NCBI GenBank assembly: GCA_008080735.1
Contig: SHMW01000013.1
Coordinates: 15,918-77,859, forward strand
Length of the DNA: 61,942 nucleotides
Source: Promethearchaeota archaeon
GTDB lineage: Archaea; Asgardarchaeota; Lokiarchaeia; Sigyniarchaeales; SOKP01
Direction of reading: 5' to 3'
Each line of letters opens with the position of its first letter. Positions within the stretch are counted from its first letter, which is position 1. A program made the position numbers and the translations under genes. The notes under the pieces were generated by a model that had not been told where the DNA came from, searched no databases, and saw nothing but the letters and a program-made list of their open reading frames with translations. Positions 15,820 through 61,676 of the stretch are shown here, piece by piece.

Positions 15820-16335
15820 TTAGGAGATTGTTTGAATATATAAACTCATCTCTCCTAAAGTTGTTGTATCCGCGGTTGTTCGTGCCCATATCGATATAAT
15901 ATATGTATTTGGGGGAAGAGAAGGGTCAAAATACTGAAGAGCAAAGGAATATCTCTGCCGAAAGTCTATGCTTTCCGCTTCCAGCGTCATTTCCCGTCCT
16001 TCATAAAATTCATTTATTTTTATGCGAAGATAAACAATATTATAGGTATCATCAATGGGAAAGCGAACGAATCCATTAAAAACAATATATATACTCGAGG
16101 TCTCATTTAATTCGAGCGTGAAAGACATTGGATCGACGTATTCAAATGATGTGCTATCAAAGGAATATGTACTGGACTCTTTATACCAATGATCTATCGA
16201 AGAGCTATCATTTAGAGATGATGGACTTAAATATATATCATATATTACATATCCACCCAAGCCTAAACTGATTATTGCTAACAAAATTGAAACCGCGCCA
16301 AGTGCTTTTCCACTTTTCATTTCACTCACCTCCAA
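15820..16335 (-). CDS. hypothetical protein, N-terminal TM + beta-rich domain
   Basis: ORF with signal/TM segment; GGAGGTGA RBS suggests the ATG at 16320 as start. Confidence 0.75.
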   Translation of the reverse strand: MEVSEMKSGKALGAVSILLAIISLGLGGYVIYDIYLSPSSLNDSSSIDHWYKESSTYSFDSTSFEYVDPMSFTLELNETSSIYIVFNGFVRFPIDDTYNIVYLRIKINEFYEGREMTLEAESIDFRQRYSFALQYFDPSLPPNTYIISIWARTTADTTTLGEMSLYIQTIS

Positions 16336-16563: not shown

Positions 16564-17703
16564 TTATGCTTTCTCTAACTCCATCTCTTTAATTGCCTTC
16601 GCACTACGGAAGGGAAGATCTTCTGTTGATTCGCCCGCTTTATATTTGAATTTTTCTTCGAATTTTTCATTGAGCGATTGAAAGATAAGTGATAAGGGCA
16701 AGTCCATGGGACAATTATTCGCGCATGAACCGCATTCCACACATCGGTCTGCATCATGAGCAATTCGGGTTAATTGATAGGTGACATTATCAATCGCTTT
16801 ATCTTTTCGCTTTTTCTGTAATATACAATCCACGCAATAGCATACGGGACAAGCGCGAATGCACATCCCACACATAGTACATTTCTTCAGCTGCTCAATC
16901 TTTTCCTCTTGTGAAAGGGCTTCCCACTCTGCAAGATCTTTTGCTCTCCTTTCTTCGGCAGTCTTAATAATTTCGTCCATCTTTTCTTCATGAGAACTTT
17001 TAATATCATCGGAAAGATCTTGCGTTTTAACGCCTGACGCTTCGAGTAAATCAGCCCCTTTATTGGTATGAACTTTAAGGATCACATCCTCTGAATCGAT
17101 TGGGATGCCAATGTCAGTTACGGAAAGATCTGCGATTACTGGATCTTTTCTCACACATCGAGCGCAGTTATCAGCGACATCGATATCTACTTGTTTAGTC
17201 TTTCCGTCTTCGAGCATAAAAAGTAGGCCATCATCAGTGATTTTTTCCTTGACGATTTTAGAAGTATCGAGTTCTTTCTCACTGCGTAATTCGCGCGAGA
17301 CATTTAATGTGATTCCTCGATCTTCAAGAGCAATAATGAATAAGTTATCCAAATTTACCTGTCTAAGTTTGTTAAGTTCAATTAAAGCTCGAGTATCGCA
17401 CGGACGCGCGACAAGGGCGATTTTTCCGTCTTTCGCACCGTTCGCTTTTTCATGCAAAAATTTTGACGCTGAATCTGTGCGTGAAAAACCATAGGCAATT
17501 AAATTAGATAATGGAAATTTTTCAATATCTTCGGGTTTTTCCCATAATACTGGGGAGATCGAGAACCGATCTTCTTCACCCGTTTTTCGACTAACTTTCG
17601 CTTCCGCTCCGATTACTTTATCGACCGTTCCCCCTTTAAGAAGAGCTTTTAATAATTCGGGAAAGTCGGTCTCTTTTATGAGATATTCTGCTTTCGTATC
17701 CAC
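16564..17703 (-). CDS. FdhB/FrhB-like (F420-dependent dehydrogenase beta subunit-like) Fe-S protein, third gene of the Sec-hdr operon
   Basis: ARPCDTRAL..L, CARC, ADLSV.DIG, CTMCGMCIRACPVCYC and CVECGSCANNCP; GTG start. Confidence 0.8.
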   Translation of the reverse strand: MDTKAEYLIKETDFPELLKALLKGGTVDKVIGAEAKVSRKTGEEDRFSISPVLWEKPEDIEKFPLSNLIAYGFSRTDSASKFLHEKANGAKDGKIALVARPCDTRALIELNKLRQVNLDNLFIIALEDRGITLNVSRELRSEKELDTSKIVKEKITDDGLLFMLEDGKTKQVDIDVADNCARCVRKDPVIADLSVTDIGIPIDSEDVILKVHTNKGADLLEASGVKTQDLSDDIKSSHEEKMDEIIKTAEERRAKDLAEWEALSQEEKIEQLKKCTMCGMCIRACPVCYCVDCILQKKRKDKAIDNVTYQLTRIAHDADRCVECGSCANNCPMDLPLSLIFQSLNEKFEEKFKYKAGESTEDLPFRSAKAIKEMELEKA

Positions 17704-17743
17704 TGTATTCCAACTCGTAATCTTATTTTATTAAATTAAATTG

Positions 17744-17808
17744 GAAAAATAACACTATCAATGAGCACCCATTACTCATCAGTATTGAGAACTCATTTAT
17801 TATTTTTC
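17744..17808 (-). promoter_or_regulatory. long imperfect RNA hairpin in the vhuD-fdhB intercistronic region
   Basis: Minus strand: GAAAAAUAAUA/UGUUAUUUUUC, AAUGAGU/GCUCAUU, CUCA/UGGG, UACU/AGUA stems closing a GAUG loop. Confidence 0.55.
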
Positions 17809-17847
17809 ACTTGATTTGATACATATTTGTAAATTATTTTAATTAAA

Positions 17848-17918
17848 ATGTGCGCAATGGGGCATCCATTTCTTCAACAAGATTCTCGTTTTTGTAATCT
17901 TGTATCATAAGGGCACAT
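17848..17918 (-). promoter_or_regulatory. SECIS element, eukaryote-like (AUGA...GA kink-turn core)
   Basis: Starts 4 nt after the vhuD stop. Helix I AUGUGC/GCACAU; core AUGAU...UGAA; perfect 8-bp helix II ACAAGAUU/AAUCUUGU; A-rich apical loop ACAAAAACGAG; extra AAUGG/CCAUU hairpin on the 3' side. Confidence 0.8.
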
Positions 17919-17922
17919 ATTC

Positions 17923-18354
17923 TTATTTTTGTGTGTCTATTCGAATAGGATTTGGACCGAGTTCTGCGATCTTTTTATGGAACTTTGTTGCTTCCTTTTG
18001 GAATTTTTGTCCTTCCGCGGCACTGCAATAGAACATATGAATCCGTTCTTTATCTAAACCGATCGAATCGAGCAGTTCCTTGATATACTCAACTTCTCGA
18101 TAGGCAAAATAATTCCCATTTTCATAATCGCATTCGCCGGGGTATCAAGCTGCCACCAGAACACCGTCAGCACCCCGTCCAAACGCGCGCATCACGAGAT
18201 CAGATCCCACTCGTCCAGTACACGGCACTAAAACCGTTCGGATTGAGGATGGATATTGGGCACGGATGGTACCTGCCATATCAGCACCTCCATATCCTCA
18301 TTTCCAACAGAAAAAGCCAATGATCTTGACTTTTCCATTTTCATTTTCAGACAT
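17923..18354 (-). CDS. vhuD: selenocysteine-containing hydrogenase/Hdr-associated [2Fe-2S] subunit VhuD/MvhD (143 aa, 2 Sec)
   Basis: MSENENGKVKIIGFFCWKUGYGGADMAG...VPCTGRV...GADGVLVAAUYPGECDYENGN...SAAEGQKF...LGPNP. UGA at 18298-18300 and 18145-18147 align with Cys in the mvhD at 32756-33220 (CCNWCSY; TGCHIGDC); AGGAGG upstream. Confidence 0.93.
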
Positions 18355-18373
18355 TTTAGCATTTCCTCCTCGT

Positions 18374-20329
18374 TTACTCCTCTATAGGTAAGAATTCATC
18401 TATATAGGCCATATATTGGACATCTCTGTAATATCTGAGCTCAATCGCGTTGCTTGGACATTGGGCGGCGCACGTTCCGCAACCCCGACAGCTGATAATA
18501 TCAACGACTAAATTTCCGTTTTCATTTACAGATATCGCATTGTAAGGACACGCTTCAATACATTTATAACATTTCGCGCATCGCTCGTCTGATGGAGTCG
18601 CCCGAATCAGTTCCATGGTATATTCCCCCCGACCCATCGGAATCGCTGCTGAGGACGCTGCACCTTTGGCTTGTCCTACAGCTTTATCAATTCCTTTCTG
18701 TCCTTGACATGAGCCGGCAATAAACACACCCGGAACTTTCGTACTAATCGGATCCAATCGAGCATGGAATTCCTTGAGAAATCCATCAGGACTACGTTCC
18801 ATATTCATTACGTTGGCGATTTCTACTGTACCTTGGGAGGGCAAAGACGCCGATGACAAGACTACCATATCAAATTCTTCTTCAATGACCGTGTCTGTTC
18901 CTACGGGCTCCATCTTAACCTTCAGATTCTTAGTTTCGGGATCCTCTTCAATATTTCCAACCAAACCTTTCATGAAGATAATACCAGAATTTCGCGCTCG
19001 ACGATAATACTCCTCATAATCCTTCCCGCAATTTCTCATATCGATATAGCATACGACTATTTCGGAATCAGGATATTCTGATTTAATTAACTTGGAGTTT
19101 TTCACCGATAAATTACAACACACTACGCTACAATACTCGTTACTTCGTAAATCCCGTGAACCCACGCAGTTGATGAATAATATGCGTTTCGGTCGCTCTC
19201 TATCAGAAGGTCGCTTTAGATGCCCAAATGTAGGTCCATTTGGCGCGAGAATGCGTTCGAGCTGAATCTGAGTTATTACGTTGTCATAGGTGCCGTATCC
19301 GTAATCATCCTCTTCATAGAGGTCCCAACCAGTCGCAATAATAATCGTTCCAACTTCGAGATCCACATACTCTTCCTTCATACTAAAATCAATCGATTCT
19401 TGATCGCATGAATCCACACACGCAAAACATTCCACACAAGAGTCTCGAGCAATATCATATACCGCTGGGACTGCTTGCGCGAATGAAATGTCAATGCATT
19501 TACGGGCCGAAAGGTTTTCGTCAAAATAATTCGGTACATAAATTGGACAGACTTCGGTACACTGGCCGCAGCCCGTACACGAGTCTTCATCCACATACCG
19601 AGGATTTCTCTTGACTTTTACCTGAAAGTTGCCAATATATCCATCCACATCAACAACTTCACTATAACTCATGATGTTTATATTCGGATGACGATTGGCT
19701 TCTAACATTTTTGGCCCCAAGATTCAGATAGAACAGTCATCTGTAGGAAACGTTCTGTCCAATTGGGACATCCGACCACCAATGGTCGTTTTCTTTTCTA
19801 CAAGATGGACTTTATATCCCGCATCTGCTAAGTCGATGGCTGAGGTTAGTCCTGCGATACCTCCGCCTATAACTAACGCTTCGGGTTTTACAGGAACAGT
19901 TTTCGTTGGCACATCCTCTAACAATCGTGCTCGTGAAATTCCTGCTTTAATGAGTTCAATCGATTTTTGCGTCGCTTCTTCCTTTTCTTGTTGATGAACG
20001 AAGCTACAATGTTCTCTGATATTGACGAATTCAAGGTATCGTGGTGGTAAACTGATCTCTTCGAGTATTGCGTGAAAGACCGGTTGATGTGTTTTAGGAG
20101 TGCATGCCGCAACAACAACCCGATCAAATCCGACTTCCTCGTTTTGCTCTTTTATATAGGCGCTTCCACCTTCAGTACACATCGAAAGATATTCATACGC
20201 CCAAACGTTCGGTAGCTTATCAATCTCCTCAACTATCTCTGGAACATCGAGTATTCCCGCTATATTTATACCTCACCGACACACAAATACCGCAATTTTT
20301 AGTTCATTGGTCTGTTCTTCTTCAGACAA
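18374..20329 (-). CDS. hdrA: selenocysteine-containing heterodisulfide reductase subunit A (651 aa, 2 Sec)
   Basis: One frame from TTG 20329 (MSEEEQTNELKIAVFVCRUGINIAG) through UGA 20273-20275 and UGA 19724-19726 (FPTDDCSIUILGPKM) joins ORF-track fragments 19724-20182 and 18374-19720. GGGIAG FAD motif, ACTP, NIREHC, ferredoxin motifs. Confidence 0.93.
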
Positions 20330-20754
20330 TTTTTACACCTTTTGGGTAAATTAACCTCCAATATCTTGAGATTGATTTGTTTTGATTTTTAATTATAAGT
20401 TTAATATAGTTAATTGGTAAAATTAACAATTGTTCTTAATATTTGTTCTTAAGATTAATCATTGAACTATTAATAACTAATGATATTTCAAAAGTAAGAA
20501 TCCGCATGTTGAGTTTGGGAAGTAGATATTTTTGATACATTTCATTCAAAAACAATTCAATTTTGATCTATTATGATAAAAGAATTATTCCCTTGAAAAA
20601 GTGGAAAATGGTATATTTTTCAGAAGTGAGTTTTTGATAATCCACTTTTTTTCATAAGGAGCAAGTTACAGCATAGAGAATCCTATTATATATTTTAGTA
20701 ATATGATTCAGTGGATTCAAATATTTTTTAATCTGAGTTATCTTACCTAATAAT

Positions 20755-24105: not shown

Positions 24106-25425
24106 ATGATCTCCTTAAAAACATTTAAACGATATACAACTTGTCTAATATCAAATAAGTACATAAAGATTGGCTTATGCCTCCATTCCATTAGTTTCAT
24201 GGCTGGGTTGATCATTGGACTAAACTTTGTGTTTACTGAGTATCATTATTTTGATTTTCCCGCATTTTATAGATCTGGAAACTTGATTTTCTCTGATCTG
24301 AATAACCTTTACAACCTTTCCTCATATCCAGGAGTTTATTTTAGATATTTACCGTTTTCTGCGCTATTATATTCATTCTTATCTTTATTTCCTATTGAAA
24401 TTGCATTTGTACTAAATGCGATTTTCAAACTAATTATAAATCTTTTGGTCGTTATTTTAATGACTTATCTATATGAACATTTCTATAGTAAAAATGGATC
24501 TCTTGATAAATATTTTTATTCCTTATTATTTGCATATTTGGTATTTGGTGCGCATGTGATAGATTATGTACAAGGTCAACCGAACCCATATCTTGCCTTT
24601 TTACTTTTAATTACTCTCTATTTTTTTGAAAGCTCTAAAAGAAAACCAAAAAAGAGGTTTTTATATAATCTTATGGGCGGACTATGTTTAGGAATTGCAT
24701 CTAGTTTTAAATTAACTCTATTTATTATCCTACCTTTTGTTTTAATCTATTCCTTGCAAAATTCCGATCTAAAGATTAATATTAGCAGATTATTGGGGGT
24801 CTTTTTAATTATCATTATTAATGGTTTTTTTTTCCTAATACAACCTAAAATTTTATCAGACTTTTTCATTCTTAATTTAGAAGGTGGTTTTTCTTATTTG
24901 GAATGTTCATTTTCAATCAGCATAACTCGTATGGTAATCAATAGTTTCGGGTTCTTTGAAATACACATTTCTCCTATGCTCATTATGATAATCTTTTTGG
25001 TACCTTTTTTTCTATTGGTATTTAATCAATATTTGAAAAATTATAATAAAAACAAATTATTACCGGAATTATTCTCCTTGGCTTTATTTATTCCAATACT
25101 CGTGTATATAGATGTCTGGTCTTATCAATATATTATCTCATTTCCTTTCATTCTTCTTTCTATGGGACGACTGAATGAAAATTTATATACGTTTGAAGAC
25201 TTTCATCCACAAATTTACAATAATGCAAAATTAAATTTAGACCAAACCAAAAAAATTGTCAATTTAATGGATATATATATATGGGATTTGCTTCCAGCGT
25301 TTTTCTTTTTTATTTTGCAAATTCCTGCCCTTAATATTTTTTACACCGTTTTTTCCTTGATTCTTTTTGTACGATTTTATAATTTCTATAAACACAAATT
25401 TTACTATGATTTCAACGATTTATAG
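24106..25425 (+). CDS. GT87/DUF2029-like polytopic glycosyltransferase
   Basis: DFPAFY, FRYLP, GQPN, G..LGIA..FK motifs; multi-TM. Confidence 0.75.
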   Translation: MISLKTFKRYTTCLISNKYIKIGLCLHSISFMAGLIIGLNFVFTEYHYFDFPAFYRSGNLIFSDLNNLYNLSSYPGVYFRYLPFSALLYSFLSLFPIEIAFVLNAIFKLIINLLVVILMTYLYEHFYSKNGSLDKYFYSLLFAYLVFGAHVIDYVQGQPNPYLAFLLLITLYFFESSKRKPKKRFLYNLMGGLCLGIASSFKLTLFIILPFVLIYSLQNSDLKINISRLLGVFLIIIINGFFFLIQPKILSDFFILNLEGGFSYLECSFSISITRMVINSFGFFEIHISPMLIMIIFLVPFFLLVFNQYLKNYNKNKLLPELFSLALFIPILVYIDVWSYQYIISFPFILLSMGRLNENLYTFEDFHPQIYNNAKLNLDQTKKIVNLMDIYIWDLLPAFFFFILQIPALNIFYTVFSLILFVRFYNFYKHKFYYDFNDL

Positions 25426-27872: not shown

Positions 27873-28436
27873 TTAGCTTTCGTATTCTTCGAGTTGTTCA
27901 CCAAAAAGGCGTTTTACAGCGTCTAATCTGGTTTCCTCACCGATCTGCTCGACATTCTTTAAGGATATCGCTTCTTTTGGACAGACTAATATACATTGAG
28001 GCTCTGGTTCACCGACCTCAGGATCGATAAATTCTTCTTTCATATTTTCGCATAAATCGCACACTAATGCCTTTTGCGAATTAATATTTAACGAAATCAC
28101 ACCGAAATCGCACGCTCGGATACAAAATCCGCACCCATTACACTTATCATCATCGACGATGATACTCCCTGTCTCTTCATCACGTTCTAACGCTTTTTCG
28201 GGACAACTCCGAACGCAAGGAGCATCTTCGCATTTTTGGCATGCTAATGCGATATTGAAGACGGGCTCCACCCGGACGCGATGGATTCTGGCATTAATCG
28301 GATTAAATACTCCCTCGTGAACGAAGGAACACACTGATTCGCATGTTTCGCATCCAGTACAGAGATCTGGGTCGACCATAATGAATTGATGCATTTTTCC
28401 GCCGCGCTTCTTAATCTTCGATCTAGCTTTTGACAT
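27873..28436 (-). CDS. 4Fe-4S dicluster protein (AOR electron-transfer subunit)
   Basis: CTGCETCESVC, CQKCEDAPCVRSCP, CNGCGFCIRAC; 3 nt downstream of aor. Confidence 0.9.
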   Translation of the reverse strand: MSKARSKIKKRGGKMHQFIMVDPDLCTGCETCESVCSFVHEGVFNPINARIHRVRVEPVFNIALACQKCEDAPCVRSCPEKALERDEETGSIIVDDDKCNGCGFCIRACDFGVISLNINSQKALVCDLCENMKEEFIDPEVGEPEPQCILVCPKEAISLKNVEQIGEETRLDAVKRLFGEQLEEYES

Positions 28437-28439
28437 TGT

Positions 28440-30380
28440 CTATTTCTTACCTCCTTTTTTCTTTGCTGGCTCTAAATTTCCAATAACATAATCCAATCCT
28501 AAATCCTTCAAGGTTTCATCGGTCGGGATACCAGTCTCAGGGTCCCACCCTCGGGCTTCATAATATCCACTCAGTAATTTTTGATATCCTTTCTCTTCTA
28601 AAGTGACTCCTTTTGCAGGTCCTTTTGTATGCGCTTCTTTAAAGAATCGCTCTGGAGGATGATCATCATCGCGTGTCCATCCTTCGCGAATATTGAAGCA
28701 TTTGGACAAATTCAAGATAGCGGCTCCACGTTGCGCCATTGAAGTTCCATCATGCGGAATTCCAGTTACCAATTCATAAACCTTTGCCATCTCGTCGTCA
28801 TCTTCATAGACTCCACGGGTAAACTTGCAGATAATATAAGAGTCGATGACAGCATAAATATCTTCCACCTCAATAATCGCATTACCTCGCTCAATTGGCT
28901 TGTCATAGGCAAAGCGGTCAAATTTACCTTTTGCGTCTAGTCCATAGGCTCCATTTCGCAGATGGCAAGCACCTCGGATAGAAACACTCTCTCCGACCGC
29001 AAAGGAAGTCATCCCATGCAGATCAAAAGCAGGCATTTCTAATCCTTTAATATGCATTCCATAATAACCGGCATTCTTTCGACCCATTTCCTCTAAGCGC
29101 TTTCCAGCCATTAATGTACCATCACCAAAAATTTCTCCTGCGAATCCTTCGCCTCTGATCATCTCTTCGGTAAATCTAACTAAGTTTTTCGTGGATCCAA
29201 ATGGTAATTCGTACCCTAAATCATCCTTGGTGATAAGGCCCTCCTCATATAATTCACAAGCCATCGCGGAGGTGACTCCTCCTGAGATCGCATCAATCCC
29301 TAAATCATCACATAATGTAATACATTTAAATACCGTTGGCCAATCAGCACAGCCCGTTCCTGTTCCAAATCCATATAAAAGCTCGATATCGACACTTGCG
29401 ACAAGATTTGGATAATCTGGATGGCTTCGTGGTACTCGTGCTAAATGATCGCACGCAACAGAACATTGCGAGCAAGCAACCTTCTTTACAACCCATTCAT
29501 CGTTTAAAGTTTCTCCCGTAAATTCACCGTTTGTTATCTTGTCCCATGTTCCTTCTCTGTAATTGTAAGTGGGCATCATACCCAATTTATTATAGCTGGT
29601 TAACCCCGCTGGAGTTCCTAAATCTCGATATTTTGAAGTAGCGGGGCCATTAGCGACCTTTATAAGCTTTTTTGCTAATTGATAAAATTCTTTCGGTTTT
29701 GCGACGGCAATGGGTTTAGTTCCTCTAAACGCAACTGCCTTTAAGTTTTTGGAACCCATAACAGCTCCCATACCAGTTCTTCCTGCCTGCCTATTACGAT
29801 CGTTCGTGATACATGCCATATTGCTCATACGTTCTCCTGCGGGACCAATTGCCATAACAGCTAATCGATGATCTTGAAATTCTTCTCGAAGAATCTCTTC
29901 TGTATCCCAACATCCTTTCCCCCAAACTAAATCTTCACAGGGCATACAATATCTATCATCATCATCAACAACGAACACTGTTGGCTCGGGTGCTTTTCCC
30001 TTAAATACTATCATATTAACGCCGGCTCGTCTGGCTTGCGCACCTACCGAACCTGAAGAGATAGCCATTCCGAACATATTGGTTAAGGGTGATTTCGCGA
30101 ATACCCCATATTTGGAACTCGTAGGTAAAATTGTTCCCGGAAACGGACCAATAGACCATACAAATATATTATCGGGACCTAATGGATCTACTCCTGGTTC
30201 CAACTCATCCCATAATACTTTTGCCCCAAACCCATACCCTCCAATCCAATTAGCCACGAATTCATTGGACAATTTACTCTCCGTTACCTTCCCTGTGGTC
30301 AAATCAACGTCTAATCGAATCTGTGAATATCCTTCCACTTCCTCTGGAATAGTTACTTCTGTTTTTTTTGCTTCGGTCAT
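28440..30380 (-). CDS. aor: tungsten-containing aldehyde:ferredoxin oxidoreductase family protein
   Basis: KSPLT, AGRTGMGAVMGSKNLKA, CSQCSVAC, DDLGIDAIS, RGACH, YYEARGWD. Confidence 0.93.
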   Translation of the reverse strand: MTEAKKTEVTIPEEVEGYSQIRLDVDLTTGKVTESKLSNEFVANWIGGYGFGAKVLWDELEPGVDPLGPDNIFVWSIGPFPGTILPTSSKYGVFAKSPLTNMFGMAISSGSVGAQARRAGVNMIVFKGKAPEPTVFVVDDDDRYCMPCEDLVWGKGCWDTEEILREEFQDHRLAVMAIGPAGERMSNMACITNDRNRQAGRTGMGAVMGSKNLKAVAFRGTKPIAVAKPKEFYQLAKKLIKVANGPATSKYRDLGTPAGLTSYNKLGMMPTYNYREGTWDKITNGEFTGETLNDEWVVKKVACSQCSVACDHLARVPRSHPDYPNLVASVDIELLYGFGTGTGCADWPTVFKCITLCDDLGIDAISGGVTSAMACELYEEGLITKDDLGYELPFGSTKNLVRFTEEMIRGEGFAGEIFGDGTLMAGKRLEEMGRKNAGYYGMHIKGLEMPAFDLHGMTSFAVGESVSIRGACHLRNGAYGLDAKGKFDRFAYDKPIERGNAIIEVEDIYAVIDSYIICKFTRGVYEDDDEMAKVYELVTGIPHDGTSMAQRGAAILNLSKCFNIREGWTRDDDHPPERFFKEAHTKGPAKGVTLEEKGYQKLLSGYYEARGWDPETGIPTDETLKDLGLDYVIGNLEPAKKKGGKK

Positions 30381-31634: not shown

Positions 31635-32744
31635 TCATTTTGCTTTTCTTGAAATCATTTTTTTAAAGATCTCCTTGCGCTTTTCCTTCCAAGCAGACTC
31701 CTCATCTCTGGGATGAATATATTGGTCAATATAATTTCCAGATAATAATGAATCGATCAATTTCTGTCCAGTGTTGTTCCTGGTGATAGTTACCGAATAT
31801 CCTTCAGGTGCACCCGTAGATCCGACACTGATATCCGAATAGCGTCCCGTGAAATCATCGCACAGTTTACAATGGGATCGAACAGCTGGATCCAAATCCT
31901 TAATACCGATCTCTATCATCTCATCATCCGTTTTTTGAATGTAAAAATTCTTCTTGATGAACGTTTTTTTCATCTCAGAAGGTTTAATCCCCTTGTTTTT
32001 CTCAATAGTTCCGTAAAGCGTGGAATAATCAAAATTTTCAAAACAGAATAGGCTAATAACATATTTAATTACGTGAGCTGGTTTAATACTGAGATATTGC
32101 ATCTTTCGTAAGGCTTTTACTTGACATGGTGTTCCTACAAAAGCGACTCGCATTTGATCGATGTCATAGATACCCTTCTCTTCTTGAATTTCCAGAGGAA
32201 TATTGTAGAGATCCTTCAAGGGTATAATTTGACTCGAGATAGAATATCTTGTGCCTGCTGATTTCAGAAGATCTTCCTTATCGAAAATCAATTTCGGTAT
32301 CGTGTGTAACTCTTCGTCATGTTCAGAGACTACAGCAGCATCAATTAGGTTTTTCTCAAATAAGTAATATAAAATTGTAGTGACGATACCTCCATCTTGC
32401 CCGACCTTTTCAATTGCCTCTTTTGTTGTTTTTGCAGCTATAATATCATTCACATGGCCCAATTCATCTTGAATATCTAAATCTTGAGCAATTAAGTCTT
32501 CCAATGTCCCGCTTTGAGGACAGATATAATAACATAGTCCGCATTCAGTGCAATTATCTTCATTTTCTTTAGATTTGAATTTAGGAGTATATCCGTCGAT
32601 TTCAATTACATCAAAACTCTGACTTTCGCAGTAGGCCACACATGCTCCGCATGCGCAACATAAACGCTCTTGAATTACTTTTTTTTCTAAGTCTTTAAAG
32701 GTTTTGACGTCATCTTTTTCCTTTTTACTTATTGATTCTGTCAT
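31635..32744 (-). CDS. coenzyme F420 hydrogenase/dehydrogenase beta-subunit (FrhB-like)
   Basis: CCACGACVAYC, QDGGIVT, AGTRY, VGTPCQ, LFCFENF, C..CDDF...SDISVG. Confidence 0.88.
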   Translation of the reverse strand: MTESISKKEKDDVKTFKDLEKKVIQERLCCACGACVAYCESQSFDVIEIDGYTPKFKSKENEDNCTECGLCYYICPQSGTLEDLIAQDLDIQDELGHVNDIIAAKTTKEAIEKVGQDGGIVTTILYYLFEKNLIDAAVVSEHDEELHTIPKLIFDKEDLLKSAGTRYSISSQIIPLKDLYNIPLEIQEEKGIYDIDQMRVAFVGTPCQVKALRKMQYLSIKPAHVIKYVISLFCFENFDYSTLYGTIEKNKGIKPSEMKKTFIKKNFYIQKTDDEMIEIGIKDLDPAVRSHCKLCDDFTGRYSDISVGSTGAPEGYSVTITRNNTGQKLIDSLLSGNYIDQYIHPRDEESAWKEKRKEIFKKMISRKAK

Positions 32745-32755
32745 TTTTTCACCCT

Positions 32756-33220
32756 TTATTCTTGTTTAACTTGTATTTCGCCTAATTTTTTTGGAAATGG
32801 CGATGGTCCTAAGCTTAAGATGGTATCATTAAATTCACGGATTAATTCAGCAAATTGTTTTCCCTCACTTGCCGATATCCATTCCAAACGAAATCGGGTG
32901 GGTTCGATTCCAATTTTTTTCAATAAGGTTTTCATATGTTCCATGCGTTCTCTAGTTAATTCATTCCCGCTAATATAATGACAATCGCCGATATGACATC
33001 CCGTTACTAATACTCCATCTATTCCGCTTTTGAATGCGTCAAGAATAAATGACGGTTCTACTCTTCCGGAACACATCACTCGAACAATCCGCACACTCGG
33101 GGGATATTGGAAACGAGAAACTCCTGCCAAGTCAGCCCCCGCGTAACTACACCAATTACAACAGAAGACTAATATTTCAGGATTAAATTCCTCGTTCTTT
33201 TTTAATTTAGTTTCAGTCAT
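32756..33220 (-). CDS. mvhD: MvhD [2Fe-2S] subunit (cysteine form)
   Basis: FCCNWCSYAGADLAG, VMCSGRV, GCHIGDCHY, WISASEG. Confidence 0.95.
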   Translation of the reverse strand: MTETKLKKNEEFNPEILVFCCNWCSYAGADLAGVSRFQYPPSVRIVRVMCSGRVEPSFILDAFKSGIDGVLVTGCHIGDCHYISGNELTRERMEHMKTLLKKIGIEPTRFRLEWISASEGKQFAELIREFNDTILSLGPSPFPKKLGEIQVKQE

Positions 33221-33227
33221 TCTCTTT

Positions 33228-36200
33228 TCACTTTTCTGGCATTTTACATGATTCTAGATTAATACCGGGCAACAACTCAATTTGTTTTTTAATTTGGAAT
33301 TTGCTGAAATGCCTCTGATTAATTGCGCCTAATGGACATTCTGCCGCACATGCCCCGCATCCTTTACAGACCGCGCTAATAATATGGGCCTTTTTTTCAG
33401 AAATCTCATAAAGACCGACCTTTTTACTTATTTCTTTCATTTCAATTGCATTATAGGGACATATTTCAGCACAGACCCCACACCCTATACATTTAGATTC
33501 ATTAACATAAGAAGTGATTCCTTCTGTTTCTACTTCTCCTTTAACCATTAATGAGGCCGCCCTTCCCGCTGCAGCATACGCTTGTGTAATTGCTTCATCA
33601 ATTCCTTTCGGCCAATGCGCATCTCCGCATAAAAAAATTCCATCTGTAGCAAAATCTACTGGTCGAAGTTTTACATGCGCCTCCAAAAAGAATCCATCCT
33701 TAGTGGTTGGGACTTTAAGCATCTTTGCTAACTCTCCAGTTCCTTTGCTAGGGATTTCAGGAGTAGCAAGAATTAACAAATCAGAATCATATTCAACATT
33801 ACAATTCGCACCAAGATTTCGGTAATCGACATTAAATGCCCCATTGCTAAGTGATAATTTGATATCCTTTATGGATTGATATCTTTCAAATGAAACTCTT
33901 TTCCTTAATTCACGCCATAAACCTTCTGCGTTTAGGTCTGAGAATTGTAATTCTCTATATAATACATGGATATTAGCTTCTGGATTAATTGAAAGCAATT
34001 TTTCTATATTTTTCAAAGCCACCTTACAACAAATATTGCTACAATATGTTTTAATTGCTTCTTCACTATTGAATTCATTTCTCCTTTGATCAACGCATAA
34101 TATTATTGTTGCATCATCAAAGCTGGGCAAATCCGCATTTTTAGTGGTTTCTAATTCATTTTGAGTCAATATTCTATCTGGATATTTTTGAATTACTTCT
34201 TTCCACCTATCTGTTTCAGATTGCTTTGTACCCGTTGCTACAACAATCGTTCCAACTGTAAACTCCTTTATGTCAGAATTATTTTGATTGTTATTTGTTT
34301 TCACTTTATAATTTCCAACATATCCATTTACATCAACGATGTTTGTGTTAGTAAAGATTTGAACATTAGGCTTATTTTTTAATTCTTCAATCAATTCTAT
34401 AATTTCATTTTTGGTAATCTCGAGATCATACAAATCAATAAAATCTAGGGATTTTCCTCCTAACTGTGAGCTTTGCTCCACGAGATACACATTAAATCCT
34501 TGATTTGATAAATTGTGCGCTGTATAGATTCCCGCAACACCTCCCCCAATAATAAGGCTTGATTTTTCTACTTTCACTTTAATTTTCTCAAGAGGATTAA
34601 GATTTACTACTTTTCCAAGGTACATTCTAATTAGGTCACAAGCCTTTTTAGTCGCTTTTTCTGGTTGATCTTGATGAACCCAGGAATTCTGGTCCCGAAT
34701 GTTTACTAATTCAAATAAAAATGGATTCAATCCCGCTTCCCTGAGGGTATTTCTAAACAAGGGTTCATGTGTTCGAGGAGTACAAGATGCTACAATAAAC
34801 CTATTTAGTTTGTACTCCTCTATCATTTCCTTTATTCTCTCTTGAGAATCCGAGCTACAAGAATACATATTTTCTTCAGCGTGAACGACATAGGGTAAGT
34901 TGGCAACATAATTCACCACGGCAGTGGTATCCACAATGCCTCCAATATTAATACCACACTGACAAATTAGAACTCCCACTCTAGGTTCGTCCTCTACACC
35001 GACGGGAATTTCTGGGGGATAAACTACTTCTTTTATATTATTAAATCTAACGGGATGTAATTTTTCACTTATCTTAGCAGCGCAAGCTGTTCCCTCAGCT
35101 ACTGAGACAGGGATATCTTTAGGATTTTTGGCATATCCCGCAAAGAAAATGTTTCTATCCTCACATTTTGAAAGAAAATCTTCGCGTATAAAACCATATT
35201 CATTATAATCAACATTCAACCATTTTAGTAAATCATAATATGATTTATTGGGAAAGAGGGCGCTTGCTAATACGACCATGTCATAATCATCATTCTCTAC
35301 TATACCTCTTTCAATATCTTCATAAAATAACGTTAATTTACCATTCTCTGGATTTTTTTTAACGATAGAAGCTGTACCATTTACATATTCCACTCCGTAT
35401 TCTTCCTTGCTCTTAACGATAAATTCATAAAAATTTTTGCCTTTAGCACGTAATTCTGTGTTAAAAATAACACATTCGGTATCTGGAGCATGTTCTTTAG
35501 TAACAATTGCTTGTTTTGCAGCTGCCATACAGCAAATAGATGAGCAATATTTTTTACATTCTGGATGATGAAAGTCTCGTGAACCAATACATTGAAGAAA
35601 CGCAATCTTATGAGGATGTTTTTTATCATCTAATCGGATTAATTCACCCCCAGTTGGACCATTAGCTGAGAGAAGGCGCTCGAATTGCATGCTTGATACT
35701 ACATTTACAGATTCACCCGCTAATGTTTCATAAACATCAGGCATTTGCTGTTCCCAACCCGTCGCAATGACAATAGCCCCTACATTGATGCTTTTAAATT
35801 CTTTTTTTTGAGAAAAATTAATAGCATCGGCACTACACATTTGCTCACATAATCCACAAATGCCATAATTTAATTTTAGACATTTTGTCTCATCAATCAA
35901 ATAGACTGGTGGAACTGCAGAAGGAAAGGATATATGGGCTGCGGCATGCGATTTTAAATTATAGTCAAATGCATGAGGTAAACCTTGCACAGGACAAACC
36001 GCCGCACAATCTCCGCAACCTTTGCAGATATCTTCGTTGACATACCGTGGTTTTTTTTCCACCGTAATGCTATAATTTCCAGTCTCTCCTTCAATTTTTC
36101 TCACTTCAGAATAAGTCAATAATTCAATATTGGGATTTCTATATACTTCAACCATTTTGGGGGCAAGAATACATAGACTACAATCCAACGTGGGAAAGGT

Positions 36201-36350
36201 TTTATCTAATTGTGCCATCGCACCACCAATGGTTGATTTCTTTTCTACTAAATAAACTTTAAATCCTAATTCAGTTAAATCTAAACTAGTTTGTATTCCC
36301 GCGATACCGCCTCCTATCACAAGCACGCTACTCGATAAATTTTCACTCAT
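33228..36350 (-). CDS. hdrA: large HdrA-like flavo-Fe-S protein (cysteine form, two FAD modules)
   Basis: GGGIAG..DKTFPTLDCSLCILAPKM; internal RVGVLICQCGINIGG and ASCTPRTHE; second GGGVAG; FLEAHVKLRPVDF; C-terminal ferredoxin. Confidence 0.92.
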   Translation of the reverse strand: MSENLSSSVLVIGGGIAGIQTSLDLTELGFKVYLVEKKSTIGGAMAQLDKTFPTLDCSLCILAPKMVEVYRNPNIELLTYSEVRKIEGETGNYSITVEKKPRYVNEDICKGCGDCAAVCPVQGLPHAFDYNLKSHAAAHISFPSAVPPVYLIDETKCLKLNYGICGLCEQMCSADAINFSQKKEFKSINVGAIVIATGWEQQMPDVYETLAGESVNVVSSMQFERLLSANGPTGGELIRLDDKKHPHKIAFLQCIGSRDFHHPECKKYCSSICCMAAAKQAIVTKEHAPDTECVIFNTELRAKGKNFYEFIVKSKEEYGVEYVNGTASIVKKNPENGKLTLFYEDIERGIVENDDYDMVVLASALFPNKSYYDLLKWLNVDYNEYGFIREDFLSKCEDRNIFFAGYAKNPKDIPVSVAEGTACAAKISEKLHPVRFNNIKEVVYPPEIPVGVEDEPRVGVLICQCGINIGGIVDTTAVVNYVANLPYVVHAEENMYSCSSDSQERIKEMIEEYKLNRFIVASCTPRTHEPLFRNTLREAGLNPFLFELVNIRDQNSWVHQDQPEKATKKACDLIRMYLGKVVNLNPLEKIKVKVEKSSLIIGGGVAGIYTAHNLSNQGFNVYLVEQSSQLGGKSLDFIDLYDLEITKNEIIELIEELKNKPNVQIFTNTNIVDVNGYVGNYKVKTNNNQNNSDIKEFTVGTIVVATGTKQSETDRWKEVIQKYPDRILTQNELETTKNADLPSFDDATIILCVDQRRNEFNSEEAIKTYCSNICCKVALKNIEKLLSINPEANIHVLYRELQFSDLNAEGLWRELRKRVSFERYQSIKDIKLSLSNGAFNVDYRNLGANCNVEYDSDLLILATPEIPSKGTGELAKMLKVPTTKDGFFLEAHVKLRPVDFATDGIFLCGDAHWPKGIDEAITQAYAAAGRAASLMVKGEVETEGITSYVNESKCIGCGVCAEICPYNAIEMKEISKKVGLYEISEKKAHIISAVCKGCGACAAECPLGAINQRHFSKFQIKKQIELLPGINLESCKMPEK

Positions 36351-60154: not shown

Positions 60155-60260
60155 TACTGAATAATTTAAATATTTTTTTTCTTTTAACTTATTTTGAATT
60201 TTGTGTAAGAAAATAGGGAAATTAGAAAATAATTAATTTAATCAAGTAAAATTATAAATA

Positions 60261-61676
60261 ATGGCTGAGCAACAAACAGACGATACTACTTTTTCGATAA
60301 ACAAAAATATGTGGCCGGTCTATCCCCTAGGAGGCTTCCAAATACTCGCATTTAGTGGTATATACATCATTATCGTTCCTTTATCCAAAATATTTTGGCC
60401 CAATGACCCTTATCACGCGTTTGAAATGGGTCTTTTGATTACATCAATGTTTTGGATGATGTCCATCGCGGGGCTCATATTTGGAAGATTCATTGATAAA
60501 TATAATAGAAAAAAAATATTACTCATGGTGGCGTGTGCTCGAGGTATGAGTATGCTTCTCCTTTCCTTTACAATGGAAGGTCAAGGAATTCGTTCTTGGC
60601 TCTTTTTTTATGTGTTTGCGTTAACTTTTTCATTATTTGCGGGGGGGAATTATCCTACGGTGCTTTCTCTTGCACATGATATCGTTCCAATGAATATGAG
60701 GTCGAGATTTTTCGGTATTTATGGAATCGTGCGTAATGTTTTTCAATTAGGCGGCTTTCTTTTTTCAGGCTTCTTGATCCAAGCGGGATTATGGCGAATC
60801 TATTTTAGCTCAATAGGATTAGCACTCATCATTTCTGGAATTATAATGTTTCTGCACTTGGAAGAACCTAAAAGAGGGGCTCAAAGGGATGAGCTGAAAA
60901 CCGCATTAAAAGAAGATTCAGTGAAATATGAATATCAAATAGACAAAGAAACAATGCGCTCGACTATGCTTAGTAAAACCAATCTGGTGGCTTTGATTGA
61001 GGGTATTAGTACCCAGCTCTTTATGGGCAGTTTAACCATCCTTTTCCTTCCTTATATCCAAAATCCCCCTCACAATATCTCGCCGTTAAACACGAGTTTA
61101 TTTATTGCGATATTTGGTATCAGCGCAGGAGTTTTAGGAAGGATATTTCTTGCTCGGGCATCGGATAGGTGGGCGTCCGACAACCATAAAATTCGGCTCT
61201 ATTTGATTGTGTTTGCGCTCTTTGGAGGTGCTCTATTCTTCGTAATTTTATTCTATATCCCTCTCCCCTTATTAAGTGAACAACAAGGAGCAGATTTATC
61301 CTATGTGTTTAGTTTCCCAGTTTTTTGGATAATGGGACTGATGTTTTTAATCAGTCAATCTATATCGGCATTATACGAGATTAATCAAGGTCCACTCATT
61401 CAAGAGATAAATCTCCCCGAGGCTCAAGGACAAATAGTCTCATGGAATAAATTTCTGGAAAATATCAGTTTTGGAAGTGGACCGTTAGTCAGTGGTATTT
61501 TTATCTCTTTCATTGGAGAGAATTATCAGATCGTCTCGCTATTTATTGCTTTTTTCACAATCCCTGGTATTTTGTTATGGATTTTTGCTCTGAATTGGTA
61601 TAAGGAAGATAAAGAACGAATTCAAGAATTATTAGATAAACGGGCAAAAGAGATAAATTCTCAACGTAGGAAATAA
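60261..61676 (+). CDS. MFS transporter
   Basis: FGRFIDKYNRKK motif A, EPKRGA, about 12 TM. Confidence 0.9.
   Translation: MAEQQTDDTTFSINKNMWPVYPLGGFQILAFSGIYIIIVPLSKIFWPNDPYHAFEMGLLITSMFWMMSIAGLIFGRFIDKYNRKKILLMVACARGMSMLLLSFTMEGQGIRSWLFFYVFALTFSLFAGGNYPTVLSLAHDIVPMNMRSRFFGIYGIVRNVFQLGGFLFSGFLIQAGLWRIYFSSIGLALIISGIIMFLHLEEPKRGAQRDELKTALKEDSVKYEYQIDKETMRSTMLSKTNLVALIEGISTQLFMGSLTILFLPYIQNPPHNISPLNTSLFIAIFGISAGVLGRIFLARASDRWASDNHKIRLYLIVFALFGGALFFVILFYIPLPLLSEQQGADLSYVFSFPVFWIMGLMFLISQSISALYEINQGPLIQEINLPEAQGQIVSWNKFLENISFGSGPLVSGIFISFIGENYQIVSLFIAFFTIPGILLWIFALNWYKEDKERIQELLDKRAKEINSQRRK

Follow-up and report, generated by a model that had tools for sequence, protein, structure and literature searches.

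The hdrA locus and its two in-frame UGA codons

The stretch of DNA analyzed here (the window; 61,942 nucleotides (nt), positions 15,918 to 77,859 of contig SHMW01000013.1, GenBank assembly GCA_008080735.1) belongs to the genome of a Promethearchaeota archaeon of the class Lokiarchaeia, referred to below as the source genome. On its reverse strand, between positions 16564 and 20329, lies a cluster of three genes, hdrA, vhuD and a frhB-like gene. hdrA and vhuD each carry two in-frame TGA codons, which are most probably read as selenocysteine (Sec, U in sequences), and a selenocysteine insertion sequence (SECIS) element of the lokiSECIS type follows vhuD. The features of the cluster are listed here in the order of their transcription.

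18374..20329, (-): hdrA, 651 codons, starts with TTG, ends in TAA and has two in-frame TGA codons; full-length match to solved HdrA structures
20273..20275, (-): TGA of codon 19, Sec19 (C-R-U, FVCRUGINIAG); lies in the N-terminal Fe-S domain and pairs with Cys13 of 5ODC chain A
19724..19726, (-): TGA of codon 202, Sec202 (C-S-I-U, DDCSIUILGPKM); the canonical Sec site
17923..18354, (-): vhuD/mvhD (FlpD family), 143 codons, two in-frame TGA codons; Pfam FlpD with E 1.6e-44
17874..17908, (-): lokiSECIS, consisting of ATGA, a stem of 9 positions, an A-rich loop of 11 nt (ACAAAAACGAG) and GA
16564..17703, (-): frhB/fdhB-like Fe-S protein of 379 amino acids (aa), Pfam FrhB_FdhB_C and Fer4; third gene of the cluster

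In a preliminary description of the window a single frame had been reported from TTG 20329 to TAA 18374, interrupted only by TGA at codons 19 and 202. Translation of the frame 18374-20329 (-) with TGA as U confirmed this, giving 651 residues with exactly two TGAs and a TAA stop at 18376-18374. Only one codon lies between the preceding upstream stop and the start TTG 20329, and in the alignment this start column is common to the orthologues, which have M, V or L there. The gene had also been suspected to be mis-split by the calling of open reading frames (ORFs). Indeed, translation table 11 splits the frame into ORFs at 19724-20182 (152 aa) and 18374-19720, and the public protein collections hold it as two fragments of 152 aa and 444 aa, the latter starting from ATG 19708.

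When the full-length product was compared with the PDB by phmmer, it matched 9sfi_A (E 5e-214, residues 9-647 to 3-650) and 5odc_A (E 1.8e-204, residues 9-644 to 3-647), with further matches to 8rvu_a and 7bkb_A. Pfam assigns NAD_binding_8, Pyr_redox_2 and several Fer4 families to it, the motif IGGGIAG of the fold that binds flavin adenine dinucleotide (FAD) is found at residues 153-159, and all ferredoxin motifs are present (CTGCGQCTEVCP, CVECFACVDSC, CAKCYKCIEACP and CRGCGTCAAQCP). In the HMMER alignments U202 is placed on Cys197 of 5odc_A and on the X at residue 197 of 9sfi_A, which bears out the earlier assignment of the CxxU motif to the methanococcal Sec-HdrA site. Likewise, U19 aligns with Cys13 and C17 with Cys11 of 5odc_A. 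The gene encodes an HdrA, it has two Sec codons, and gene callers have fragmented it.

Conservation of the UGA codons

The gene was compared codon by codon with 19 orthologues of 70-84% identity. Both columns, 19 and 202, carry TGA in 19/19 orthologues although 57% of the third codon positions differ, and such retention is not due to chance. In the part from the first to the second TGA the differences per codon position amount to 0.22/0.11/0.57, and in the part behind the second TGA to 0.19/0.11/0.58. Since this pattern is equal on both sides of the second TGA, the same purifying selection acts on both parts and the frame is translated through the codon. Two of the points on which the preliminary description had made its reading depend, retention of TGA in related genomes and the absence of relaxed selection, speak for it.

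These data bear on the simplest competing explanation, a pseudogene or an assembly or sequencing error, by which the TGAs would be nonsense mutations or miscalled TGT/TGC codons. The split gene calls could be taken in its favor, as could the quality of the source genome, which is a metagenome-assembled genome (MAG) in 140 contigs with 7% contamination. However, the 19 orthologues with TGA at both columns come from independent MAGs, the divergence by codon position is equal on either side of the second TGA, and the TGAs are confined to conserved Cys columns in a genome that has a SECIS and the Sec machinery (see below). We give this explanation practically no weight.

A broader alignment comprised 34 HdrA sequences, of which 33 cover columns 17-76 (L031 is cut there). 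Within the aligned HdrA bodies TGA codons occur exclusively at the Cys columns 19, 51, 76, 202, 251 and 617. Column 202 is U in 33/34 sequences and column 19 in 25 of 34 (33 of which cover it). Residues C17, U19, C51, C76 and U202 are always either C or U (among 33 sequences for columns 17-76). C17 is never U, and column 108 is not conserved. The stop codon of hdrA is TAA or TAG in all 34 loci with a readable stop and never TGA. The source genome itself contains five full-length HdrA paralogues with 1-4 TGAs next to all-Cys forms, and copies with 1-5 TGAs were found in all 40 relatives searched (same family and order).

In two members of this alignment, L027 (a same-genus relative, G006:C124) and L003 (source genome, C42:14034-15956), Sec also takes the place of Cys residues in ferredoxin motifs. 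These are column 251, the first Cys of a CxxCxxCxxxCP motif in an inserted ferredoxin (LUTGCGSCTDVCP), and column 617 (CDGUGICATCCP).

A split HdrA was considered as well, in which UGA terminates translation and a 152-aa N-terminal domain assembles non-covalently with a 444-aa core. HdrA domains are split or rearranged in other organisms (PMC9012536), and start codons are present shortly after the second TGA. Nevertheless, termination would remove two invariant Cys-equivalent residues and leave a useless peptide of 18 residues, and there is no ribosome-binding spacer since the sequence runs on without a gap, and with its frame conserved, over each TGA. It would also leave the conserved SECIS described below without explanation, and we regard a split HdrA as very improbable.

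vhuD and the frhB-like gene

Translation of vhuD would start at ATG 18354, 19 nt past the hdrA stop on the same strand. Its two TGAs, at 18300-18298 (Sec19, FFCWKUGYGGAD) and 18147-18145 (Sec70, VLVAAUYPGECDY), both fall on Cys columns. The motif CWKUGYG is kept in the orthologous vhuD loci and 11 of the examined loci gave a match to a motif of the AAUYPGEC type. The hdrA-vhuD layout recurs in related loci, and the frhB-like gene follows directly downstream in about 30 orthologous loci with 49-73% identity.

When HdrA's N-terminal domain was compared with VhuD by BLASTP, a weak local match of VVAAC to VLVAAC was obtained (E 0.007), which is suggestive of a homology between HdrA column 76 and Sec70 of VhuD. 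In one locus of the same order (L030, G031:C209) the HdrA frame, when read through, continues for 828 residues and contains four more TGAs past the HdrA body. This may be a fusion of hdrA and vhuD, or vhuD may merely lie in the same frame.

A single SECIS element behind vhuD

The lokiSECIS begins 14 nt past the TAA of vhuD and reads ATGA-TACAAGATT-ACAAAAACGAG-AATCTTGTT-GA (17908-17874). Over its 9 stem positions it forms 8 standard pairs and one U-U, and it folds as predicted with a z-score of -2.9 against shuffled sequences. The four upstream UGAs are 2367, 1818, 392 and 239 nt away from it. The 19-nt spacer between hdrA and vhuD is too short for a second lokiSECIS-type element of 35 nt directly after hdrA. 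As the single SECIS lies behind vhuD, hdrA and vhuD would have to be on one polycistronic mRNA, with the element acting across up to 2.4 kb.

The regions behind vhuD were scanned for ATGA, 9 positions, a loop of 11 or 12 nt, 9 positions and GA, with the loop lengths enumerated. The same architecture was present in 22 related loci at -8 to +27 nt relative to the vhuD stop, and in three of the 22 it partly overlaps the stop region. An alignment of 20 of these elements shows ATGA, GA and the AAA run of the loop to be invariant, while all 9 stem pairs (9/9) show two-sided changes. The covariation score is 1.01, while shuffles reach 0.27 and slid registers do not exceed 0.25.

These results also bear on how Sec would be inserted. 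In an alternative model Sec insertion is real but would be directed not by the 3' element but by bacterial-type hairpins that immediately follow each UGA. In its favor, fairly good folding was obtained for the segment behind the first UGA of vhuD (-20.1 kcal/mol, z -1.65). In contrast, the other three 60-nt segments are no better than shuffles (z -0.40, +2.03 and +0.06), the lineage is archaeal with a factor of the EFSec type, and it is the 3' element that is conserved and covaries. Insertion through such hairpins is therefore considered most unlikely.

Throughout the 4.1-Mb genome the strict SECIS pattern has 7 matches only, and all inspected ones lie behind TGA-containing frames. One of these frames, of 162 residues from stop to stop (G000:C7, source genome), contains ...LDPGCUUEK..., i.e., two consecutive TGAs after a Cys, and ends 19 nt before a strict match at 24791 (-). 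Either the product is a selenoprotein in which two Sec residues adjoin, or the gene ends at the first TGA. On another contig of the source genome (G000:C10, 33559-35021 (-)) three strict matches are crowded into 1.5 kb, two of which stand behind peroxiredoxin-like frames (FFRGAFUVPC, and FFRGTWUGHU with a third TGA in ...NYSULLIDFF...) that resemble the published PrxL selenoproteins of Lokiarchaeota.

Sec machinery and genetic code of the source genome

The source genome encodes SepSecS (389 bits, E 1.8e-116), EFSec/SelB (243.9 bits with the selB model, cut-off 242.25) and SelD (180.6 bits), the latter with one in-frame TGA. A further gene is probably PSTK by its match to positions 1-248 of the 249 model positions (178.6 bits).

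ARAGORN and the Rfam tRNA-Sec model RF01852 did not find a tRNA-Sec in the unedited source genome, and all six same-genus relatives have a tRNA-Sec match. By blastn with the tRNA-Sec of the same genus the gene was located at about 60231-60371 (-) of another contig (G000:C15), outside the window, between SepSecS and EFSec. It has two insertions, one of 22 nt directly after the anticodon TCA and one of about 28-29 nt in the T-loop. Once both are removed in silico ARAGORN calls a tRNA-SeC (tca). The T-loop intron of the Loki tRNA-Sec is already published (PMC4989117), and the other insertion, located at the canonical site, may represent a minor variation.

As in-frame TGAs occur in several genes of the source genome, we considered whether TGA has been reassigned genome-wide and codes for a standard amino acid (cf. 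code 4 or code 25) instead of Sec. But TGA terminates 459/2598 long frames genome-wide and 9/34 in the window, and therefore remains a stop codon. Moreover, the in-frame TGAs of the aligned HdrA and of vhuD are placed on conserved Cys residues, and a dedicated SECIS lies behind vhuD. The probability of such a reassignment is negligible.

Proposed mechanism

We conclude, with a probability of about 0.93, that in this Lokiarchaeial hdrA-vhuD-frhB-like cluster hdrA and vhuD each contain two UGA codons that are read as Sec via a shared eukaryote-like SECIS. The one element just after the vhuD stop would direct the decoding of all four UGAs, and Sec would be inserted by the archaeal/eukaryal pathway with tRNA-Sec, PSTK, SepSecS, SelD and EFSec. 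The observation made in the preliminary description is confirmed and its reading of the gene as a two-Sec HdrA is supported. It did not include vhuD and the SECIS, which account for the decoding of these codons.

Several points weigh against this conclusion or parts of it. The SECIS copies had been selected for at least 8/9 pairs, which inflates the percentage of paired positions, although it does not bias the compensatory changes, for which the homologous site is fixed. The Rfam SECIS models had no match, neither in the whole window at the gathering threshold nor in 17600-20450 in E-value mode (in the latter, a snoRNA model alone was matched, which at E 2.6 was rejected as noise). The PSTK candidate stays under the curated equivalog cut-off of 290.5, and the tRNA-Sec is recognized only with its two insertions deleted. 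Sec insertion, here as in Asgard archaea at large, is predicted from gene sequences. As for the chemistry, assigning an iron ligand to the position of Cys13/Sec19 is reasonable from domain membership and conservation, and the Cys bridge of Sec197 discussed below leaves even the chemistry of the canonical site unsettled (PMC13518236).

The HdrA product would be a flavin-based electron-bifurcating enzyme. VhuD would pass electrons via its [2Fe-2S] cluster to the FAD of HdrA, and the frhB-like protein is a likely input or output module, i.e., a redox partner of HdrA-VhuD. There is no gene with a CCG domain on the contig of the window, and no hdrBC genes are adjacent to hdrA. Elsewhere in the source genome 38 CCG-domain matches were found in about 20 ORFs, some of them beside other HdrA paralogues.

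Probable selenium at the N-terminal cluster of HdrA

In HdrA, the [4Fe-4S] cluster of the N-terminal domain is bound by N-terminal cysteines and by Cys197, which the partner protomer contributes (PMC9012536). Sec202 would replace this residue, and Sec19 would replace Cys13 in the CxC motif of the N-terminal domain. Both seleniums are thus probably located at the N-terminal cluster or beside it, on the low-potential branch that leads to ferredoxin. The conserved N-terminal Cys/Sec columns are four (17, 19, 51 and 76). As the cluster takes four ligands and the partner Cys197 provides one of them, three of the four N-terminal residues would bind. In a paper of 2016, which predates the structure, it was stated that the Sec positions are not cluster ligands (PMC4989117). 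A cryo-electron microscopy study of M. maripaludis from 2026 found Sec197 bridged to a cysteine between the N-terminal cluster and the FAD, and called its role unresolved (PMC13518236).

One idea is that the N-terminal [4Fe-4S] cluster is held or gated by exactly the four columns outside the ferredoxin motifs that tolerate Sec, namely 19, 51, 76 and, from the partner protomer, 202. If they are its ligands, the HdrA described here would have a cluster with mixed 2Se/2S ligation, and paralogues in which three such columns are Sec (e.g., L003, L038 and L039) would have a mostly selenolate-ligated one. Alternatively, Sec19 and Sec202' of the partner may form a diselenide relay, by analogy to the Cys-Sec197 bridge of M. 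maripaludis. Even taken together, we rate these two proposals as possible but rather unlikely.

The question of what selenium does at this cluster was sharpened by the bridge described in 2026, and Loki paralogues with two to four Sec residues at this site would be suitable for addressing it.

A Cys paralogue and further genes in the window

The window contains a second, parallel Hdr operon.

31635-36350, (-): parallel all-Cys operon with a double HdrA gene followed by mvhD (154 aa) and finally by a frhB-like gene (369 aa)
33228-36350, (-): ORF of 1040 aa, rearranged double HdrA, all-Cys; first gene of the operon

The motifs that the preliminary description had ascribed to a Cys paralogue in the window were located in this ORF, ICQCGINIGG at 34964-34938 and LDCSLCILAPKM at 36185-36153. 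They occur in reverse order because the protein is a rearranged double HdrA, in which the flavin module with the Cys197 motif comes first and the N-terminal CxC domain is internal. The operon may correspond to the selenium-independent counterparts of Methanococcus, or represent a heterodimer in one chain like the forms described for ANME.

At 27873-30380 (-), in the interval between both Hdr operons, are the genes of an aldehyde:ferredoxin oxidoreductase (646 aa) and of a polyferredoxin-like Fer4 protein (187 aa), two additional ferredoxin-linked redox genes nearby. A TFIIB gene also lies within the window. For annotation, the two public fragments of 152 aa and 444 aa should be merged and the uncalled vhuD should be called, both as selenoproteins.

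Comparison with known systems

Among the closest known systems is the HdrA of the crystallized HdrABC-MvhAGD complex (PDB 5ODC family). All domains and Cys motifs align with it (9-644 to 3-647), but it is an all-Cys protein, and its Cys13 and Cys197 are Sec here. The Sec-HdrA of Methanococcales and Methanopyrus (M. maripaludis, PDB 9SFI, Sec197) is of the same family and length with about 50% identity and has the same CxxU Sec, and there, too, a vhuD with two Sec adjoins hdrA. In contrast to the HdrA described here, with its Sec19, the methanococcal proteins have Cys at the N-terminal CxC motif (VCYCGANI, VCHCGVNI). Their SECIS is of the classical archaeal type, whereas the one found here is eukaryote-like (PMC4989117). 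Furthermore, methanococcal HdrA works with HdrBC in methanogenesis, whereas the organism studied here is not a known methanogen and has no hdrBC next to the cluster. Bacterial Sec-HdrA-like proteins (Syntrophorhabdus, Desulfobacterales and others) have the canonical CxxU Sec (FPTNDCSMUIL) in about 22 of about 30 loci fetched. All of these loci have Cys at the N-terminal CxC (VCHCGANI), and they encode fused forms of about 1000 aa that are about 40% identical.

The N-terminal Sec had been called less commonly described. Outside the Lokiarchaeia this holds, as it was not found in the methanococcal or Methanopyrus sequences compared nor in the about 30 bacterial HdrA loci, and from these comparisons it appears to be specific to the Asgard lineage. 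Within the Lokiarchaeia, on the other hand, it is the rule and was published in 2016 (PMC4989117). In that study Mariotti et al. described multi-Sec HdrA proteins of Lokiarchaeota that have a SECIS in common with VhuD. There, hdrA and vhuD invariably form a tandem in which very few nucleotides separate the two genes, only vhuD has a lokiSECIS behind it, a single one whose stem has 9 bp and whose apical loop has 11 nt, and the hdrA stops are always UAA or UAG (PMC4989117). A survey of the Asgard selenoproteome followed in 2024 with 1439 selenoproteins (PMC11227280). In its HdrA sequence file, where Sec is given as X (supplement 77), VCRXGINIAG occurs 51 times, CRXG 175 times and CSIXILGPKM 85 times, so that the N-terminal Sec was already catalogued there.

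The cluster agrees with the published Loki HdrA/VhuD tandem of 2016 and 2024 in every point and differs in nothing essential. Extra Sec residues on conserved Cys positions, an adjoining vhuD with two Sec and a SECIS with an AUGA core are found in both. The tRNA-Sec has the T-loop intron and the location near EFSec in common with the published one, and the source genome adds the 22-nt insertion after the anticodon. For HdrA, six Sec columns (19, 51, 76, 202, 251 and 617) are seen in the present sample, and the 2016 study gave five positions. In sum, the finding is real and its reading was correct, but it is a known feature of Lokiarchaeial genomes. In this archaeal lineage, the closest one to eukaryotes, a single eukaryote-like SECIS appears to recode four UGAs of two cistrons, and it was this link between archaeal and eukaryotic Sec decoding for which the system was published.

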